Below are positions 6,377-64,000 of a stretch of DNA of 64,000 nucleotides, piece by piece. The stretch comes from a virus: UHGV virus genome UHGV-0148165; one strand, given 5' to 3'. Under the pieces are notes generated by a model. That model was not told the DNA's origin, searched no databases, and saw only the letters and a list, made by a program, of their open reading frames with translations. The first letter of the stretch is position 1. Each line of letters opens with the position of its first letter. The position numbers and the translations under genes were made by a program.

Positions 6377-7000
6377 ATGATTATTAATCTTGCAGATGTT
6401 GAACAGTTATCTATAAAAGCTGAAAGCGTTGATTTTCAATATGATATGTATAAAAAGGTCTGTGAAAAATTTACTGACTTTGAACAGTCAATTCTTTGGC
6501 AATGTATGGAAGCTAAAAAGAATGAAGCTCTTCATCAGCAGTTGAATAAAATCATTAAAAAGCATTTAACTAAATCACCATATCAGTTATATCGTGGTAT
6601 ATCAAAATCGACAAAAGAACTCATTAAAGATTTACAAGTCGGAGAAGTGTTTTCAACGAACAGGGTAGATTCATTTACTACTAGTTTGCACACAGCATGC
6701 GGTTTTTCTTATGTTGAGTATTTCACTGAAATAATATTTCGCTTAAAAACTGATAAAGCTTTTAATTATTCTGACCATATCAGCGATATTATACTTTCTT
6801 CTCCTAATACTGAGTTCAAGTACACGTATGAAGATACTGATGGATTAGATTCAGAGCGTACTGATAACTTAATGATGATTGTGCGTGAACAAGAATGGAT
6901 GATTCCAATTGGAAAGTATAGAATAACTTCTATTTCAAAAGAAAAATTACACGATTCATTTGGAACATTTAAAGTTTATGATATTGAGGTAGTTGAATGA
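6377..7000 (+). CDS. modA: ADP-ribosyltransferase, Mod family, 207 aa
   Basis: ART motifs: YRG (Arg), STN, EQEW (E-x-E); tandem with second Mod paralog; order as in T4. Confidence 0.65.
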   Translation: MIINLADVEQLSIKAESVDFQYDMYKKVCEKFTDFEQSILWQCMEAKKNEALHQQLNKIIKKHLTKSPYQLYRGISKSTKELIKDLQVGEVFSTNRVDSFTTSLHTACGFSYVEYFTEIIFRLKTDKAFNYSDHISDIILSSPNTEFKYTYEDTDGLDSERTDNLMMIVREQEWMIPIGKYRITSISKEKLHDSFGTFKVYDIEVVE

Positions 7001-7599
7001 AATACTCAGTAATGCAACTAAAAGATTTTAAAATAAAATCAATGGATGCATCGGTGCGTGCTTCTATTCGTGAAGAATTACTTTCTGAAGGGTTTAATTT
7101 ATCTGAAATTGAACTTTTAATTCATTGTATTACTAATAAACCAGACGATCATTCTTGGTTAAATGAAATAGTCAAATCTCGTTTGGTTCCAAACGATAAA
7201 CCTCTTTGGAGAGGTGTTCCAGCTGAGACTAAGCAAGTATTAAATCAAGGAATTGATATTATTACATTTGATAAAGTCGTATCAGCTTCATATGATAAAA
7301 ATATAGCTCTACATTTTGCTTCCGGTTTAGAGTATAACACACAAGTTATTTTTGAATTCAAAGCTCCTATGGTATTCAATTTCCAGGAGTATGCTATAAA
7401 AGCTCTACGGTGTAAAGAATACAATCCAAACTTTAAGTTTCCGGATAGTCATCGTTATCGTAATATGGAATTAGTTTCAGATGAACAAGAAGTAATGATA
7501 CCAGCTGGAAGTGTATTTAGAATTGCAGATAGATATGAGTACAAAAAGTATTCAACATATACTATCTATACTCTTGATTTTGAAGGATTTAATCTATAA
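6997..7599 (+). CDS. modB: ADP-ribosyltransferase, Mod family, 200 aa
   Basis: ART motifs: LWRG, EQEV (E-x-E); start overlaps modA stop. Confidence 0.65.
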   Translation: MKYSVMQLKDFKIKSMDASVRASIREELLSEGFNLSEIELLIHCITNKPDDHSWLNEIVKSRLVPNDKPLWRGVPAETKQVLNQGIDIITFDKVVSASYDKNIALHFASGLEYNTQVIFEFKAPMVFNFQEYAIKALRCKEYNPNFKFPDSHRYRNMELVSDEQEVMIPAGSVFRIADRYEYKKYSTYTIYTLDFEGFNL

Positions 7600-16734: not shown

Positions 16735-18912
16735 ATGATTATCACCACTGAAAAAGAAATAATTCTTGGTAATGGTTCTAAATCAAAAGCATTTAGCATC
16801 ACAGCATCTCCTAAAGTATTTAAAATTCTGTCATCTGATTTGTATACAAACAAGATTCGCGCAGTAGTCCGTGAATTGATTACTAACATGATTGATGCTC
16901 ATGCACTTAATGGAAATCCTGAAAAATTTATTATACAAGTTCCTGGACGTTTAGATCCGCGATTTGTTTGTCGAGATTTTGGTCCGGGTATGAGTGATTT
17001 TGATATTCAAGGTGATGATAATTCTCCTGGGTTGTATAATTCATACTTCAGTTCATCTAAAGCTGAATCTAATGACTTTATTGGCGGATTTGGTTTAGGT
17101 TCTAAATCTCCGTTTAGTTATACTGATACGTTTAGTATTACTTCGTATCATAAAGGTGAAATTCGTGGTTATGTAGCTTACATGGATGGTGATGGCCCAC
17201 AGATTAAACCTACATTCGTAAAAGAAATGGGTCCAGATGATAAAACTGGTATTGAAATCGTAGTTCCAGTTGAAGAAAAAGATTTTAGAAACTTTGCTTA
17301 TGAAGTTTCTTATATCATGCGACCGTTCAAAGATTTGGCTATCATTAATGGTCTTGACCGCGAAATTGATTATTTTCCTGATTTCGATGATTATTACGGC
17401 GTAAATCCAGAAAGATACTGGCCTGATCGTGGTGGATTATATGCTATCTACGGCGGTATTGTTTATCCTATCGATGGTGTTATTAGAGACCGTAACTGGC
17501 TAAGCATTCGCAATGAAGTGAATTACATTAAGTTTCCAATGGGTTCATTGGATATTGCTCCATCTCGTGAGGCTCTTTCACTGGATGATCGCACTCGTAA
17601 AAATATCATTGAACGAGTTAAAGAACTCAGTGAGAAAGCATTTAATGAAGATGTAAAACGATTTAAAGAATCTACATCTCCTCGTCACACATATCGTGAA
17701 TTAATGAAGATGGGGTATTCTGCTCGAGATTATATGATTAGTAATTCAGTCAAATTCACGACTAAAAATCTGTCATATAAGAAGATGCAGAGCATGTTTG
17801 AACCTGACAGTAAGTTATGCAATGCAGGAGTTGTGTATGAAGTAAATCTTGACCCTCGACTGAAGCGCATTAAGCAAAGTCATGAAACTTCAGCCGTTGC
17901 ATCAAGTTATCGTCTGTTTGGTATTAATACAACAAAAATTAATATCGTTATTGATAATATTAAAAATCGTGTTAATATTGTTCGTGGATTAGCACGAGCG
18001 TTAGATGATAGTGAATTTAATAACACTTTGAATATTCATCATAACGAACGTCTTCTGTTTATTAATCCAGAAGTAGAATCGCAGATTGATTTACTCCCTG
18101 ATATTATGGCGATGTTTGAAAGTGATGAAGTTAACATTCATTATTTGTCAGAAATTGAAGCTTTAGTAAAAAGTTATATTCCAAAGGTAGTTAAAAGTAA
18201 AGCTCCTCGTCCTAAAGCTGCTACAGCATTTAAGTTTGAAATTAAAGATGGGCGCTGGGAAAAAGAGGAATTATTTACACTTACGTCAGAAGCAGATGAA
18301 ATTACTGGTTATGTAGCGTATATGCATCGTTCTGATATTTTCTCTATGGATGGTACTACATCTCTTTGTCATCCATCTATGAATATTTTGACTCGTATGG
18401 CTAATCTTATTGGCATTAATGAATTTTATGTTATTCGTCCGCTTTTACAGAAAAAGGTAAAAGAACTTGGTCAGTGCCAATGTATTTTTGAAGCTTTGCG
18501 TGATTTATATGTAGATGCTTTTGATGATGTAGATTATGATAAGTACGTAGGTTATTCAAGTTCAGCTCAACGATATATTGATAAAATTATCAAGTATCCT
18601 GAACTAGATTTTATGATGAAGTACTTCAGTACAGATGAAGTTTCTGAAGAATATACACGACTCGCTAATATAGTTAGTTCATTACGGGGCGTATATTTCA
18701 ATGGTGGAAAAGATACCATCGGTCATGACATCTGGACAGTAACTAATCTTTTTGATGTATTATCAAATAATGCTTCAAAAAACAGTGATAAAATGGTTGC
18801 TGAGTTTACCAAGAAATTCCGTATTGTTTCCGACTTCATCGGTTATCGCAACTCTTTAAGTGATGATGAAGTTTCCCAAATCGCTAAAACTATGAAGGCC
18901 CTTGCGGCCTAA
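16735..18912 (+). CDS. rIIA: rIIA protein, 725 aa
   Basis: length identical to T4 rIIA; N-terminal ATPase-like region; followed directly by rIIB. Confidence 0.9.
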
Positions 18913-18923
18913 TAAGGAAAATT

Positions 18924-19862
18924 ATGTACAATATTAAATGCCTGACCAAAAACGAACAAGCTGAAATTGTTAAACTGTATTCAAGTGGTAATTACACCCA
19001 ACAGGAATTGGCTGATTGGCAAGGTGTATCGGTTGACACAATCCGTCGTGTTTTGAAAAATGCTGAAGAAGCTAAACGCCCTAAAGTTACTATTAGCGGT
19101 GATATTACAGTTAAAGTTAATAGCGATGCAGTTATTGCTCCAGTTGCTAAATCTGACATTATTTGGAATGCATCTAAAAAATTCATTTCAATTACTGTTG
19201 ACGGTGTAACTTATAACGCAACTCCTAATACTCATTCAAACTTCCAGGAAATTCTTAATCTGCTTGTAGCGGATAAGTTGGAAGAAGCGGCACAAAAAAT
19301 TAATGTTCGTCGCGCTGTTGAAAAATATATTTCCGGCGATGTTCGAATTGAAGGTGGAAGCTTGTTCTATCAAAATATTGAATTGCGGTCTGGTTTGGTT
19401 GATCGTATTCTTGACTCGATGGAAAAAGGCGAAAACTTTGAATTTTATTTTCCGTTCTTGGAAAATCTGCTGGAAAACCCAAGCCAAAAAGCAGTATCTC
19501 GACTCTTTGATTTCTTGGTAGCAAACGATATTGAAATTACAGAAGATGGCTACTTCTATGCTTGGAAAGTAGTTCGCAGCAATTACTTTGACTGTCACTC
19601 AAACACCTTTGATAACAGTCCGGGTAAAGTAGTTAAAATGCCACGTACTCGTGTGAACGACGATGATACACAAACTTGTTCTCGTGGTCTGCATGTGTGT
19701 TCTAAATCTTATATTCGTCACTTTGGCAGTTCAACCAGCCGAGTTGTAAAAGTTAAAGTTCATCCTCGCGATGTAGTATCAATTCCGATTGATTACAACC
19801 ATGCTAAAATGCGTACCTGCCAATACGAAGTAGTTGAAGACGTTACTGAACAATTTAAATAA
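18924..19862 (+). CDS. rIIB: rIIB protein, 312 aa
   Basis: length identical to T4 rIIB; position after rIIA. Confidence 0.9.
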   Translation: MYNIKCLTKNEQAEIVKLYSSGNYTQQELADWQGVSVDTIRRVLKNAEEAKRPKVTISGDITVKVNSDAVIAPVAKSDIIWNASKKFISITVDGVTYNATPNTHSNFQEILNLLVADKLEEAAQKINVRRAVEKYISGDVRIEGGSLFYQNIELRSGLVDRILDSMEKGENFEFYFPFLENLLENPSQKAVSRLFDFLVANDIEITEDGYFYAWKVVRSNYFDCHSNTFDNSPGKVVKMPRTRVNDDDTQTCSRGLHVCSKSYIRHFGSSTSRVVKVKVHPRDVVSIPIDYNHAKMRTCQYEVVEDVTEQFK

Positions 19863-53063: not shown

Positions 53064-54264
<1,201 letters not shown>

Positions 54265-57450: not shown

Positions 57451-57476
57451 GAGGACTCCTTCGGGAGTCCTTTTTT
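57451..57476 (+). terminator. intrinsic terminator, identical copy of the hairpin after soc
   Basis: AGGACTCC-TTCG-GGAGTCCT followed by TTTTTT; same 25-mer as 4178-4202. Confidence 0.65.
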
Positions 57477-57557: not shown

Positions 57558-57890
57558 ATGAAAACTATTAATCTGAACGCTACAGTTAAAACTAAATGTT
57601 TCAATGGTAAATATAATGAAACTATGTGGTTCTTAATGGCAGTTGAAGGTGATATTATTGAAGTAGAAACAACAGAAGGTATGGGAACAGATTTCACCTT
57701 TACAATTCAAGTTCATAATTTCTTTACTGGTTGGATTTATGAATTGAATACAGTAATCGTTGGAAAAATTGAACAAAATGAATTAGGTGAATGGTATTAT
57801 GTTACAGCTCGCCAACGTGCTGAACGCTTAATTGAGAAAATGAAAAAAGTTGGTAAACTTGACATGCAGCATTGGAAAGTAGTAAAATAA
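57558..57890 (+). CDS. hypothetical protein, 110 aa
   Basis: ATG after AAGGAGAATAAA. Confidence 0.5.
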   Translation: MKTINLNATVKTKCFNGKYNETMWFLMAVEGDIIEVETTEGMGTDFTFTIQVHNFFTGWIYELNTVIVGKIEQNELGEWYYVTARQRAERLIEKMKKVGKLDMQHWKVVK

Positions 57891-58850: not shown

Positions 58851-59053
58851 ATATAATTAATAAGATTTTTGGAATTCAGTACATTAAGGTCACATATAAA
58901 GTAACAGATAAAAATCCATATACCGATGAACATGAAGAACCACAAATTGAGTCTATTATATTAGAAAAAGGCAGTGACTGGCCAGTTGAATTTCGTCTTC
59001 CTTGCTATGGTCATTGGGCTGATGTTGAAATTATAAGCATTGAAAATGTCTGA
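58847..59053 (+). CDS. hypothetical protein, 68 aa
   Basis: start overlaps upstream stop. Confidence 0.45.
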   Translation: MNIINKIFGIQYIKVTYKVTDKNPYTDEHEEPQIESIILEKGSDWPVEFRLPCYGHWADVEIISIENV

Positions 59054-59504
59054 GTTAGAGATTAGAAGCAATTTTAAGTGGCCATCATGTGCATTAAGTA
59101 ATTTCGCTCAATGGCCTTTCGTTATGGATGGTATTCAATTTGGAGGTCTAGAAGGATTCCTTCAAGGGTGCAAGGTGAAAAATGTTGAACAACAACGTCG
59201 TATATTTGGGTTATCAGGGCTTGCCGCTCAACAAGCTGGAAGGTCTTATGCTAGAGCTCAGGACCGTGGGACCCTCTTCTGGCTTGGAGTTCCGTTTTCA
59301 AGATACTCCCCGGCGTGGAAAGAATTATACACAAATGCATATTTTGAAGCAGCGATCCAAAACAAGGGCTTTCGTGATGCATTACAAGCCTCGAAAGGAA
59401 AAGTTTTGAAGCACAGCATGGCTAGTGGTCTAACAAAAGATGATACAATACTAACCGAAGCTGAATTTATTGATGTGTTAAACCTATTAAGAGACTCTCT
59501 ATGA
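59046..59504 (+). CDS. hypothetical protein, 152 aa; possible NADAR/YbiA-like (DUF1768) fold
   Basis: ATG 59046 (track starts at TTG 59040); motif pattern NFKWPSCALSNFAQWPF...GLEGFLQGCK; assignment tentative. Confidence 0.4.
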   Translation: MSELEIRSNFKWPSCALSNFAQWPFVMDGIQFGGLEGFLQGCKVKNVEQQRRIFGLSGLAAQQAGRSYARAQDRGTLFWLGVPFSRYSPAWKELYTNAYFEAAIQNKGFRDALQASKGKVLKHSMASGLTKDDTILTEAEFIDVLNLLRDSL

Positions 59505-60346
59505 AGCCTACTATTTTAACTGATATCGATGGAGTATGTTTAAGCTGGCAATCAGGCCTTCCTTATTTTGCTCAGAAATATAATCTTCCGTTGGAACATA
59601 TTTTAAAAATGATCCAGGATGAAAAATTTATTTCACCTGGTAAACTTTTTAATTGTGATGAAGAACTTGGTGTCAAGTTAATTGAAAAATACAATCGATC
59701 AGATTTTATTCGTTACTTGTCTCCATATAAAGATGCTCTGTGTGTAATTAACAAATTAAAAGAAGATTATAATTTTGTTGCTGTTACAGCATTGGGTGAT
59801 TCTATTGATGCTCTGCTGAATCGTCAATTTAATTTGAATGCTCTTTTTCCTGGTGCCTTCTCAGAAGTACTGATGTGTGGTCATGATTCTTCAAAAGAAG
59901 AGTTGTTCAAAAAGGCAAAAGAGAAATATAACGTAATTTGTTATATTGACGATCTCGCTCACCACTGCGATCATGCGAGTGAAATATTAAATGTGCCTGT
60001 TTATTGGATGGCTCGAGGGGAGCGTGACAGTATTCCAAAAACTGCACAGCGTGTTTATACATGGAATGATGTAGAGAATAAGCTTTTTCCATTGAAGGAA
60101 AATAAAGAAAGTTTTGATAGTGAAAAAGCTATAAAAGATGTAATTGAGAAGATGATTAAAAACGATTCTTTTCGTTGGAACACTACCTGGAGAACTCCTG
60201 GATTTAATCCTTATAATCCATATTATCTATATCATCCATATCAGACGCATCCGTTTCAGACATGGAACTATATTAAACCCGGTGGCATAGAGTATTTGTA
60301 TAATAGACCTACTGGTGCTAATAATATTTTCCAAGGAGCATTCTAA
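59501..60346 (+). CDS. HAD-superfamily phosphatase-like protein, 281 aa, aromatic-rich C-terminal tail
   Basis: HAD motif I ILTDIDGVCL at N-terminus; C-terminus NPYNPYYLYHPYQTHPFQTWNY. Confidence 0.5.
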   Translation: MKPTILTDIDGVCLSWQSGLPYFAQKYNLPLEHILKMIQDEKFISPGKLFNCDEELGVKLIEKYNRSDFIRYLSPYKDALCVINKLKEDYNFVAVTALGDSIDALLNRQFNLNALFPGAFSEVLMCGHDSSKEELFKKAKEKYNVICYIDDLAHHCDHASEILNVPVYWMARGERDSIPKTAQRVYTWNDVENKLFPLKENKESFDSEKAIKDVIEKMIKNDSFRWNTTWRTPGFNPYNPYYLYHPYQTHPFQTWNYIKPGGIEYLYNRPTGANNIFQGAF

Positions 60347-60615
60347 TGTTTGTTGTTCACACTATTTATGAAAATGAAGGTAATACTACACGTGATTACG
60401 GTCACGTAAATCAATTTTTTAGATGCAATCCAGAATTCCGAGCTCAAAAAGACGAACGAATTTTTAAAAAATGTGTAGAGCAAGGTTTCATTTACGTCAA
60501 GCATTGGATGCAAGGAAATAAAGTTAGAACCACGTACCACAGGTCTTTGCCTGAGCTTAATGATGAATTGATTTATAATAGAGCTGTAAACCAAACCTTG
60601 AAGGATGAGCAATGA
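60346..60615 (+). CDS. hypothetical protein, 89 aa
   Basis: start overlaps upstream stop; stop overlaps ligase start. Confidence 0.45.
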   Translation: MFVVHTIYENEGNTTRDYGHVNQFFRCNPEFRAQKDERIFKKCVEQGFIYVKHWMQGNKVRTTYHRSLPELNDELIYNRAVNQTLKDEQ

Positions 60616-62075
60616 TTCTTAAAATTCTGAATGAAATAGCATCTATTGGTTCAACTAAGCAGAAGCAAGCAATTCTTGAAAAGAATAAAGATAATGAATT
60701 GCTTAAACGGGTATATCGTCTGACTTATTCTCGCGGGTTACAGTATTATATCAAGAAATGGCCTAAACCTGGTATTGCTACCCAGAGTTTTGGAATGCTG
60801 ACTATTACTGATATGCTTGACTTCATTGAATTCACGTTAGCTACTCGGAAATTGACTGGAAATGCGGCAATTGAGGAATTAACTGGATATATCACCGATG
60901 GTAAAAAAGATGATGTTGAAGTTTTGCGTCGGGTGATGATGCGAGACCTTGAATGTGGTGCTTCAGTATCTATTGCAAACAAAGTTTGGCCAGGTTTAAT
61001 TCCTGAACAACCTCAAATGCTCGCAAGTTCTTATGATGAAAAAGGCATTAATAAGAATATCAAATTTCCAGCCTTTGCCCAGTTAAAAGCTGATGGAGCT
61101 CGGTGTTTTGCTGAAGTTAGAGGTGATGAATTAGATGATGTTCGTCTTTTATCACGAGCTGGTAATGAATATCTAGGATTAGATCTTCTTAAAGAAGAGT
61201 TAATCAAAATGACCGCAGAAGCCCGCCAGATTCATCCAGAAGGTGTGTTAATTGATGGCGAATTGGTATACCATGAGCAAGTTAAAAAGGAGCCAGAAGG
61301 CCTAGATTTTCTTTTTGATGCTTATCCTGAAAACAGTAAAGCTAAAGAATTCGCCGAAGTAGCTGAATCACGTACTGCATCTAATGGCATCGCCAATAAA
61401 TCTTTAAAGGGAACCATTTCTGAAAAAGAAGCACAATGCATGAAGTTTCAGGTCTGGGATTATGTCCCGTTGGTAGAAATATACGGTCTTCCTGCATTTC
61501 GTTTGAAATATGATGTACGTTTTTCTAAACTAGAACAAATGACATCAGGCTATGATAAAGTAATTTTAATTGAAAACCAGGTAGTAAATAACCTAGACGA
61601 AGCCAAGGTAATTTATAAAAAGTATATTGACCAAGGTCTTGAAGGTATTATTCTCAAAAATATCGATGGATTATGGGAAAATGCTCGTTCAAAAAATCTC
61701 TATAAATTTAAAGAAGTAATTGATGTTGATTTAAAAATTGTAGGAATTTATCCTCACCGTAAAGACCCTACTAAAGCAGGTGGATTTATTCTTGAGTCAG
61801 AGTGTGGAAAAATTAAAGTAAATGCTGGTTCAGGCTTAAAAGATAAAGCCGGTGTAAAATCGCATGAACTTGACCGTACTCGCATTATGGAAAACCAAAA
61901 TTATTATATTGGAAAAATTCTAGAGTGCGAATGCAACGGTTGGTTAAAATCTGATGGCCGCACTGATTACGTTAAATTATTTCTTCCGATTGCGATTCGT
62001 TTGCGTGAAGATAAAACTAAAGCTAATACATTCGAGGATGTATTTGGTGATTTTCATGAGGTAACTGGTTTATGA
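60612..62075 (+). CDS. 30: ATP-dependent DNA ligase gp30, 487 aa
   Basis: adenylation motif I KADGARCF (KxDG); length identical to T4 DNA ligase. Confidence 0.9.
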   Translation: MILKILNEIASIGSTKQKQAILEKNKDNELLKRVYRLTYSRGLQYYIKKWPKPGIATQSFGMLTITDMLDFIEFTLATRKLTGNAAIEELTGYITDGKKDDVEVLRRVMMRDLECGASVSIANKVWPGLIPEQPQMLASSYDEKGINKNIKFPAFAQLKADGARCFAEVRGDELDDVRLLSRAGNEYLGLDLLKEELIKMTAEARQIHPEGVLIDGELVYHEQVKKEPEGLDFLFDAYPENSKAKEFAEVAESRTASNGIANKSLKGTISEKEAQCMKFQVWDYVPLVEIYGLPAFRLKYDVRFSKLEQMTSGYDKVILIENQVVNNLDEAKVIYKKYIDQGLEGIILKNIDGLWENARSKNLYKFKEVIDVDLKIVGIYPHRKDPTKAGGFILESECGKIKVNAGSGLKDKAGVKSHELDRTRIMENQNYYIGKILECECNGWLKSDGRTDYVKLFLPIAIRLREDKTKANTFEDVFGDFHEVTGL

Positions 62076-62260
62076 AAGCTTACTTAGAAACAATTGTCAT
62101 TGCTCAAAAAGAAGGTGGAGATGTTTCTACTTCTGTATCACAAGTCATTCTCGAATTTGTAGATGCATACGCTTATAATAAATTCACAGAAACATTTGAT
62201 GCCTATGAAAAAGGTCCAAAGTTTGAAATATACCGTACTCTCTTACCACTAGATTATTAA
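62072..62260 (+). CDS. hypothetical protein, 62 aa
   Basis: ATGA overlap with ligase stop; followed by hairpin and late promoter. Confidence 0.4.
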   Translation: MKAYLETIVIAQKEGGDVSTSVSQVILEFVDAYAYNKFTETFDAYEKGPKFEIYRTLLPLDY

Positions 62261-62276
62261 AGGCCTTCGGGCCTTT
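62259..62276 (+). terminator. UUCG-tetraloop hairpin after the ligase operon (weak T-run)
   Basis: AAAGGCC-TTCG-GGCCTTT; the AGGCC-TTCG-GGCCTTT core also occurs at 14581-14596. Confidence 0.45.
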
Positions 62277-62309: not shown

Positions 62310-64000
62310 ATGATGGAACTTATTACAGAATTATTTGACGAAGATACTACTCTTCCGATTACAAACTTAAATCCAAAGAAGAAAATACCGCAAATTTTTT
62401 CAGTTCATGTTGATGATGCAATTGAACAACCAGGCTTTCGTTTATGTACCTATACATCTGGAGGTGATACTAATCGCGATTTAAAGATGGGCGATAAAAT
62501 GATGCATATTGTTCCTTTTACATTAACTGCTAAAGGTTCAATTGCTAAATTAAAAGGTCTTGGTCCAAGCCCAATTAATTATATCAATTCAGTTTTTACT
62601 GTTGCGATGCAAACAATGCGTCAGTATAAAATTGATGCCTGTATGCTTCGTATTCTTAAGTCTAAAACCGCTGGTCAAGCTCGACAAATTCAAGTTATTG
62701 CTGATAGACTTATCCGTAGTCGTTCAGGTGGCAGATACGTCCTTCTTAAGGAACTCTGGGATTACGACAAAAAGTATGCATATATTCTTATACATCGCAA
62801 AAATGTATCATTAGAAGACATTCCAGGAGTTCCGGAAATTAGTACCGAGCTCTTTACTAAAGTTGAATCGAAAGTCGGCGATGTTTATATCAATAAAGAT
62901 ACTGGAGCTCAAGTAACTAAAAATGAGGCAATTGCAGCATCTATTGCGCAAGAAAATGATAAACGTTCTGACCAAGCTGTAATCGTTAAAGTTAAAATTT
63001 CCCGTAGAGCAATTGCACAAAGTCAGTCATTGGAATCTTCTAGATTTGAAAGTGAATTATTCCAGAAGTATGAATCTACCGCAGCTAATTTCAATAAACC
63101 TGCTACCGCTCCTTTAATTCCCGAAGCAGAAGAAATGAAGCTTGGAATTAATTCATTAGCTTCTAAAACTAAGGCAGCAAAAATTATTGCCGAAGGAACT
63201 GCGAATGAACTTCACTATGACTATAAATTCTTTTCAAAAAGTGAGGTTGATGAAGTTTCCGAAAAAATTAAAGATGTAATTTTTAACGCGATAAAAAATG
63301 AGCCAACTACTTCAATAAAATGTTTAGAGAAATACGCAGCAGCTGTTAATAAATTCTTTGAAGAATATAAAGATAATTGGCTTGATAAACATAATAAAAC
63401 TCGTAAAGGGCAACCAGATGAAGTCTGGGGAGAAATAACTAAAAATGCCTGGAATGCAGCAAAAACTAAATTCCTCAAACGAATGATTTATAGCTTTTCT
63501 GGAATTGGTGCTGGTCCAATGATTGATATTACCATTGCACGTGATGGTTCTAAATATACTCCATCACAAAAGCGTGGCATTAGAGAATATTGCGGCTCAG
63601 GATATACAGACATTAATAATCTTCTTTTAGGTCGTTACAATCCAGAACGATATGATGTAATGAGTGAAAAAGAAATTGAATCTGCTATAAATAATTTAGA
63701 TTCAGCCTTTGAAAATGGTGACCGCATACCGGAAGGCATTACAGTTTATCGTGCTCAAAGTATGACTGCTCCTATATACGAAGCGCTAGTTAAAAATAAA
63801 GTGTTCTATTTCAGAAATTTTGTATCTACTTCTTTAACTCCTATCATTTTTGGGCGTTTTGGAATTACACATGCTGGTATTGGTCTTTTAGAACCAGAAG
63901 CTCGTAATGAATTAACAGTTGATAAAAATGAAGAAGGAATAACTATTAATCCAAACGAAATAAGAGCGTATAAAGAAAATCCTGAATACGTTAAAGTTCA
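62310..64000 (+). CDS. alt: Alt ADP-ribosyltransferase (virion-packaged), N-terminal 563 codons; ORF runs off the window end
   Basis: open frame from ATG 62310 to window end with no stop (translated manually); ART-like YRAQS and STSL motifs near the end; not in ORF track because incomplete. Confidence 0.75.
   Translation, partial: MMELITELFDEDTTLPITNLNPKKKIPQIFSVHVDDAIEQPGFRLCTYTSGGDTNRDLKMGDKMMHIVPFTLTAKGSIAKLKGLGPSPINYINSVFTVAMQTMRQYKIDACMLRILKSKTAGQARQIQVIADRLIRSRSGGRYVLLKELWDYDKKYAYILIHRKNVSLEDIPGVPEISTELFTKVESKVGDVYINKDTGAQVTKNEAIAASIAQENDKRSDQAVIVKVKISRRAIAQSQSLESSRFESELFQKYESTAANFNKPATAPLIPEAEEMKLGINSLASKTKAAKIIAEGTANELHYDYKFFSKSEVDEVSEKIKDVIFNAIKNEPTTSIKCLEKYAAAVNKFFEEYKDNWLDKHNKTRKGQPDEVWGEITKNAWNAAKTKFLKRMIYSFSGIGAGPMIDITIARDGSKYTPSQKRGIREYCGSGYTDINNLLLGRYNPERYDVMSEKEIESAINNLDSAFENGDRIPEGITVYRAQSMTAPIYEALVKNKVFYFRNFVSTSLTPIIFGRFGITHAGIGLLEPEARNELTVDKNEEGITINPNEIRAYKENPEYVKV

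Follow-up and report, generated by a model that had tools for sequence, protein, structure and literature searches.

At positions 58,851 to 60,346 of a 64,000-nucleotide stretch of the virus genome UHGV-0148165 (the whole stretch is referred to below as the window), two adjacent open reading frames (ORFs) were analysed. ORF1 is gene 30.3 of phage T4, also named adfN, and its product belongs to the NADAR superfamily; ORF2 is T4 gene 30.2. The region very probably comprises an AdfN counter-defence gene and a separate HAD phosphatase gene, which are adjacent and translationally coupled and have no demonstrated joint function. The anti-DarTG activity of the NADAR protein is already known, having been published in 2024-2025 for a near-identical T4 protein, and the window adds nothing new in this respect. 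The features of the gene pair are as follows.

59046..59504, + strand: gene 30.3 (adfN), predicted NADAR-family DNA (guanine) ADP-ribosylglycohydrolase, 152 aa (150/152 residues shared with T4 gp30.3; PF08010; AlphaFold2; Foldseek)
59182..59409, + strand: gene 30.3', out-of-frame ORF within adfN, 75 aa (listed in the T4 annotation as translated internally, out of frame)
59501-60346, + strand: gene 30.2, 281 aa
59501..60085, + strand: gene 30.2 residues 1-195, C1-capped HAD-superfamily phosphatase core
60086..60346, + strand: gene 30.2 residues 196-281, C-terminal extension

An earlier reading of this DNA, made from its letters alone (the original prediction), had proposed the same two ORFs, and their positions were reproduced. 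The motifs on which it relied were located at residues 18-25 (SNFAQWPF) and 34-43 (GLEGFLQGCK) of ORF1 and at residues 5-14 (ILTDIDGVCL) of ORF2. A TTG codon at 59040 would lengthen ORF1 by 2 aa; the T4 annotation uses the ATG. Both ORFs are real, conserved genes, far beyond chance expectation, as seen from the full-length Pfam match of ORF1 and from tblastn searches in which homologs of ORF1 were present in 1511 phage records and homologs of ORF2 in 1440.

The adfN gene and its product

ORF1 was identical to T4 gp30.3 at 150 of 152 residues, the two substitutions being K11R and M125I, and its last 28 residues were the same as in T4. It was 100% identical to the allele of phage AR1. Pfam family PF08010 (Phage_30_3) matched ORF1 across its full length (E=3.5e-70) and was the only family returned by the Pfam search with ORF1 by itself, in which the NADAR family PF08719 was not reached. 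NCBIfam and PDB sequence searches with either ORF alone gave only noise, as did the Pfam search with ORF2 alone. As single-protein searches were uninformative, family profiles were needed. In an alignment of 43 ORF1 homologs (down to 35% identity), residues P13, A16, L17, S18, N19, F20, E36, G37, F38, Q40, K43 and H123 were invariant. The profile built from these homologs matched Escherichia coli YbiA (PDB 2b3w, E=0.0037) over a span covering the pattern LSNF...E...Q..K, with E36 and K43 aligned to the YbiA motif, and PF08719 was matched by 18 of the 43 homologs (best E=1.5e-7).

The AlphaFold2 model of ORF1 had a predicted local distance difference test score (pLDDT) of 93.6 and a predicted template modelling score (pTM) of 0.89, and included a C-terminal helix at residues 138-151. 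When this model was compared with the PDB using Foldseek, the top three matches were YbiA (2b3w, TMq 0.69), a Phytophthora NADAR in complex with ADP-ribose (PnNADAR, 8bau) and that of Geobacter lovleyi (8bat); every match beyond these had a probability of ≤0.1. According to the model, ORF1 carries the YbiA fold, in which core helices are flanked by small beta-sheets. The assignment of the 152-aa protein to NADAR/YbiA, which had been only tentative, is thus upheld by the profile match to YbiA, the PF08719 matches among the homologs and the three Foldseek matches. Profile search and structure prediction, both of which had been proposed as checks, placed the protein in NADAR and pointed to no unrelated family, and the two ORF1 motifs singled out at the time hold the catalytic residues.

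The DarTG1 resistance of T-even phages has been mapped to gene 30.3, which was then renamed adfN (Johannesman et al., Nat Commun 2025, PMC11825919). In that study, T4 without adfN became sensitive to DarTG1, both the T4 and the T2 alleles conferred resistance, the substitutions E36A and K43A in T4 AdfN impaired rescue, and the purified protein stripped ADP-ribose from DarT1-modified DNA. The RB69 allele, which carries a frameshift and is 15 residues short, was defective because the last helix was gone (PMC11825919). In vitro, T4 gp30.3 de-ADP-ribosylated DNA in a guanine-specific manner, and phage NADARs were found to have a histidine at the position of Glu/Asp in other NADARs (Suskiewicz and colleagues, Toxins 2024, PMC11125620). 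That ADP-ribosylation of guanine in DNA is reversed and DarTG counteracted, as suggested in the original prediction, has therefore been demonstrated experimentally for a 99%-identical T4 protein (PMC11825919, PMC11125620). By analogy with the T4 allele, the allele in the window would likewise hydrolyse ADP-ribose from guanine in DNA and confer DarTG1 resistance. It is predicted to be functional, as its full length and helix 138-151 are kept, and, judging from the sequence, K11R and M125I would not be expected to cause any functional difference from T4 AdfN.

The mechanism, demonstrated for the T4 allele, would be the same for that of the window. Host DarT1 ADP-ribosylates guanines in the phage DNA and so blocks replication; AdfN then cleaves the ADP-ribose off the base, allowing replication to proceed and the phage to escape the DarTG1 defence. 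Catalysis is carried out by E36 and K43, which lie in GLEGFLQGCK, while the last strand contains H123, the counterpart of the characteristic phage-NADAR histidine (PMC11125620), and full activity requires the C-terminal helix.

Among the AdfN alleles in the databases (P0104-P0107, P0113-P0118), several were truncated, to 126, 109 and 91 aa, or carried fused fragments of genes from the neighbourhood (gp30.7, DUF2883). One of the aberrant alleles belongs to phage UGJNEcP4, in which gp30.2, at 212 aa, lacks the tail as well. Loss of AdfN of the kind known from RB69 seems to recur, and phages with a truncated or fused AdfN are predicted to be sensitive to DarTG1. The 30.3' frame within adfN was open in T4 and four close relatives. 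Its conservation is doubtful, as it was shortened to 53 aa in a 98%-identical contig (L004).

Gene 30.2 and its C-terminal tail

ORF2 shared 96% identity with T4 gp30.2, relative to which its tail has three inserted residues (YLY). By itself it matched PHROG 420, a family of unknown function, together with a weak match to a polynucleotide kinase PHROG (E=0.0044), and it matched no HAD model in Pfam or NCBIfam. When 42 ORF2 homologs were searched, PF00702 was matched by 11 (best E=3.5e-4) and HAD_2 by six. Across these 42 homologs, the D8-x-D10-G11 residues of HAD motif I and K132 of motif III were invariant, and T96 (motif II) and D150-D151 (motif IV) nearly so; in 45 remote homologs (20-35% identity), D8, D10, W16, R108 and K132 stayed invariant. 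Residues 1-195 of the AlphaFold2 model had a pLDDT >90. Foldseek returned 103 PDB chains at E≤1e-3 for this model, and all of the 50 matches listed had HAD-superfamily folds. The best E-values were those of 5'(3')-deoxyribonucleotidases: cdN of mouse and of human and the deoxyribonucleotidase-like protein 3bwv of S. epidermidis, the last of which also gave the highest target-normalised TM-scores. With the fold recovered by two methods, the product of ORF2 is solidly assigned as a HAD-superfamily phosphatase with a Rossmannoid core and a C1 cap. The HAD motif recognised in the original prediction was therefore a sound guide, with all four motifs conserved and the fold found in the model and by Foldseek.

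The best PDB match of the ORF2 family profile was cdN (2jao, E=0.077), over motif I and the cap. The NT5C family (PF06941) was not matched by ORF2 itself. It was matched by 8 of the 42 close homologs (best E=1.2e-4) and by 20 of the 45 remote homologs (best E=6.1e-10), among which it was the curated family most often matched, and the profile of the remote homologs picked up SDT1/SSM1, XMP phosphatase and 3bwv. With the NT5C proteins (cdN/mdN, 3bwv), gp30.2 shares a C1-capped HAD fold, a similar size of ~195 aa and a DxDGV motif I, after which come an aromatic residue and SGL, with W16-x-S18-G19-L20 aligned to F-E-S-G-L. NT5C is thus its nearest curated family. In HAD enzymes, the second Asp of the DxD motif marks a phosphotransferase and not a dehalogenase; a C1 cap goes with a small-molecule substrate, and HADs which act on macromolecules are typically capless. 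By analogy, we lean towards gp30.2 being a small-molecule phosphatase, with a nucleoside or deoxynucleoside 5'-monophosphate as its likeliest substrate. In the proposed scheme it would act separately from AdfN, as a HAD phosphatase whose activity depends on Mg and whose C1 cap consists of four helices. No mention of gp30.2 by name was found in the searchable literature, where a query combining T4, 30.2 and HAD returned only irrelevant results. The gp30.2 protein is near-universal in T4-like phages, and knowledge of its substrate would close a gap for a very well-studied model phage.

The C-terminal extension was modelled as one charged helix (residues 205-220) followed by a disordered segment (residues 225-281, with pLDDT <50 from residue 225). 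This segment (60173-60346) consisted of 14% Tyr, 12% Pro and 12% Asn, with 26% aromatic residues. The earlier description of the tail as rich in Tyr, Pro and His held for Tyr and Pro; it did not hold for His, which accounted for 2 of 57 residues, and Asn reached the same share as Pro. Tails across the gp30.2 homologs were missing or highly divergent between lineages. In an exhaustive search, the family comprised 1357 cluster representatives at E≤1e-3, most of them 190-215 aa long, and the tail is for this reason regarded as a lineage-specific addition. Near the C-terminus, the motif GxGIEY[LW]xxQPT was present in 14 of 100 homologs with otherwise divergent tails, the version in the window being GGIEYLYNRPT; the tails of other lineages ended in sequences of the LRAYY or LLNKVxANDS type. 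It may be speculated that the disordered tail and its short motif form a docking peptide for a partner protein.

One homolog (P0014, locus L167 234-1142) was a tail-less gp30.2 core fused to a gp30.1-like DUF3045 domain, which occupied residues 219-295 and had 40% identity to the product of the next gene in the window, 60346-60615 (E=1e-17). This fusion gives a hint that 30.2 and 30.1 work together, and a weak one, since it comes from a single 1378-bp metagenomic contig.

Genomic setting and the relationship between the two genes

The source phage of the window is T4-like (Tequatrovirus): ~1.9 kb around the gene pair showed 97-98% identity to many Tequatrovirus genomes, the value given for the window being 97.9%. 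The ORF order was that of T4, namely 31, rIII, 30.9, 30.8, 30.7, 30.6, 30.5, 30.4, 30.3, 30.2, 30.1, 30, alt.1 and alt, with the + strand of the window corresponding to the minus strand of T4. The conventional origin of the T4 map falls inside the window. Further features which bear on the gene pair or its setting are given below.

60346..60615, + strand: gene 30.1 (DUF3045; Pfam PF11243, E=1.6e-63)
60612..62075, + strand: gene 30, ATP-dependent DNA ligase (Pfam DNA_ligase_A_M, E=6.8e-33)
62310..64000, + strand: alt (ADP-ribosyltransferase), N-terminal 563 codons, running out of the end of the window (Pfam ADPrib_exo_Tox, E=1.8e-29; position of T4 alt)
53359-54264: pseT, second HAD enzyme (HAD_PNKP domain)
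6377-7000: modB (96% to T4)
6997-7599: modA (99% to T4)
16735-19862: ORFs of the size of rIIA and rIIB (725 and 312 aa)

The 30.3/30.2 junction is an ATGA overlap. Overlaps were also present at the neighbouring junctions, with ATGTCTGA at 30.4/30.3, TAATG at 30.2/30.1 and ATGA at 30.1/30, and the tight packing of the pair is therefore not special. The pair is probably transcribed early, as suggested by what is known of T4 and by one promoter-like site. Among the promoter-like sites of the region, TTGACA-18-TAAAAT (11/12) was the best and lay just upstream of 30.7 (57859-57888), and a terminator-like hairpin directly followed 30.9 (57451-57472); together these may mark the start of a transcription unit running from 30.7 to ligase. 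A dedicated promoter for the pair was considered and rejected, as promoter-like sites occurred at the frequency of shuffled sequence (25 vs 24.8). Between alt.1 and alt, at 62260-62276, a G+C-rich hairpin with perfect pairing, aaggccttcgggcctt, precedes a T-rich sequence. It was missed by the consensus scan and is likely to be a terminator or an RNA-processing structure.

Adjacency was assessed in 80 NADAR loci from IMG/VR, in 70 gp30.2 loci with good flanks and in 67 divergent gp30.2 loci. The genus counts of gp30.3 and gp30.2 were almost the same, and since both genes are near-universal in T4-like phages this co-occurrence says little. A gp30.2 homolog was present within 10 kb in 20 of the 80 NADAR loci (13 close relatives and 7 divergent), and in 43 loci flanked by 5 kb or more on each side no gp30.2 was nearby. 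Around gp30.2, a NADAR gene was found within 1.5 kb in 35 of 70 loci and DNA ligase in 64 of 70. In the 67 divergent loci, the genes retained near gp30.2 were ligase (63), pseT (61), cd (61), gp31 (60) and alt (50), followed by 30.9 (34), NADAR (32, or 48%), 30.7 (31) and 30.8 (28). In Klebsiella phage KP17 (Jiaodavirus, L002 6001-6450), the NADAR gene was surrounded by the genes of the tRNA cluster, with 56 kb separating it from gp30.2 and ligase, which had stayed next to each other. Thus gp30.2 belongs to the conserved T4-like backbone and NADAR behaves as a variable accessory gene. The two are neighbours because both lie in the stretch of this backbone from gene 31 to gene 30, and their adjacency is probably an old arrangement which has often been broken, with no evidence of a dedicated two-gene unit. 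The suggestion that the NADAR and HAD genes form such a module was not sustained, as they were adjacent in about half of the T4-like lineages (32/67), the level of an accessory gene. For the remote homolog P0300, the context consisted only of short contigs with unannotated neighbours.

Some observations weigh against reading the region as a counter-defence gene next to a separate phosphatase gene. No PADLOC defence model, in a set which omits phage NADARs, matched ORF1 or ORF2. The number of promoter-like sites (25 found, 24.8 expected in shuffled sequence) detracts from the idea of early transcription. The two genes overlap by ATGA, and about half of the T4-like lineages, some of them only 40% identical, have a NADAR gene no more than 1.5 kb from gp30.2. 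Furthermore, AdfN(T4) did not protect uninfected cells from DarT1 and gave only slight help to T5 and Bas25, which led the authors to suspect that it requires an additional T-even protein; the NADARs of Bas32 and Bas60 both protected uninfected cells and helped T5 and Bas25 (PMC11825919).

The overlap, the NADAR genes close to gp30.2 and the limited protection by AdfN(T4) are also what speaks for a functional counter-defence module of 30.3 and 30.2, in which gp30.2 would be the missing T-even protein; RB69, in which AdfN acts in trans, moreover has its own 30.2. In such a module the substrate of gp30.2 might be a phosphorylated product or intermediate formed when ADP-ribose is removed, or its tail might recruit AdfN to replicating phage DNA. 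This is nevertheless very unlikely, as other genes of the cluster overlap in a similar way, the NADAR gene is elsewhere in about half of the T4-like lineages (by 56 kb in KP17), 43 well-flanked NADAR loci were without a nearby gp30.2, and C1-capped HADs normally take small molecules. Purified AdfN alone also acts on DNA in vitro, and many other T-even proteins could equally be the helper. In a more specific form, gp30.2, possibly with gp30.1, would be the T-even-specific helper which AdfN(T4) needs in vivo, with the tail as its docking element. Its translational coupling to adfN and its occurrence in every T-even phage make it a candidate; we consider this form very unlikely. If it were true, NADAR and HAD phosphatase would constitute a genuine unit of two enzymes countering DNA ADP-ribosylation as a defence. 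The identity of the gp30.2 substrate could also be relevant to the restriction of AdfN(T4) function to T-even infection.

It is highly improbable that gp30.2 is instead a DNA-end 3'-phosphatase of the PNKP-HAD kind which readies nicks for ligase. In 91% of the loci (64/70) ligase was no more than 1.5 kb from gp30.2, it was likewise nearby, though in another gene order, at the locus of a remote homolog, and the weak PHROG match to polynucleotide kinase (E=0.0044) points the same way. However, pseT, cd and gp31 were kept near gp30.2 as often as ligase, so that the linkage is attributed to backbone synteny, and a special link between gp30.2 and ligase was rejected on the same grounds. The model moreover has a large C1 cap, unlike the capless HADs of macromolecules, the nearest curated family is NT5C and not PNKP, and the phage already encodes PseT (HAD_PNKP, 53359-54264). 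PseT and gp30.2 have in common a HAD catalytic core and the weak PHROG cross-match; the phosphatase domain of PseT is a PNKP-type HAD acting on nucleic-acid ends, whereas gp30.2 is C1-capped and lacks a kinase domain. In the remote locus (L165 3922-6591), a tail-less gp30.2 homolog of 40% identity (P0099) was encoded ~700 bp downstream of ligase, the reverse of the T4 order, on a contig which also has endonuclease VII, PhoH and UvsY.

The idea that AdfN mainly reverses the marks of Alt, ModA and ModB, and so regulates the phage's own ADP-ribosylation, has close to negligible probability. Although alt begins 2 kb downstream of the pair (62310) and modA and modB are present in the genome, modA and modB are ~52 kb away, and Alt and Mod enzymes modify protein arginines. 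The phenotype of adfN deletion is explained by DarT1, and all NADARs tested, including T4 gp30.3, act on guanine-linked and not thymine-linked ADP-ribose in DNA (PMC11125620). Of the three ADP-ribosyltransferases described in the original prediction as encoded nearby, alt is indeed close, and modA and modB, although in the window, are not. The regulatory link to these transferases which had been suggested is unsupported, with AdfN acting on damage by host DarT1 and only alt lying near.

AdfN compared with other NADAR proteins

The closest known counterpart of the counter-defence gene in the window is T4 AdfN, with which the window allele shares its length, its genomic position, residues E36, K43 and H123 and an intact C-terminal helix, and from which it differs by K11R and M125I, both of them conservative. 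More distantly, AdfN resembles the antitoxins of the DarG1/BC4488 type and YbiA (8bat, 8bau, 2b3w) in its NADAR fold and its LSNF...E...K catalytic motif, as well as in the chemistry of ADP-ribose release from guanine (PMC11125620). In contrast to DarG1, AdfN is an orphan without a DarT partner, and the residue in the last strand is His in AdfN, Asp in DarG1 and Glu in YbiA. Unlike the DarG1-type antitoxins, AdfN does not protect uninfected cells from DarT1.

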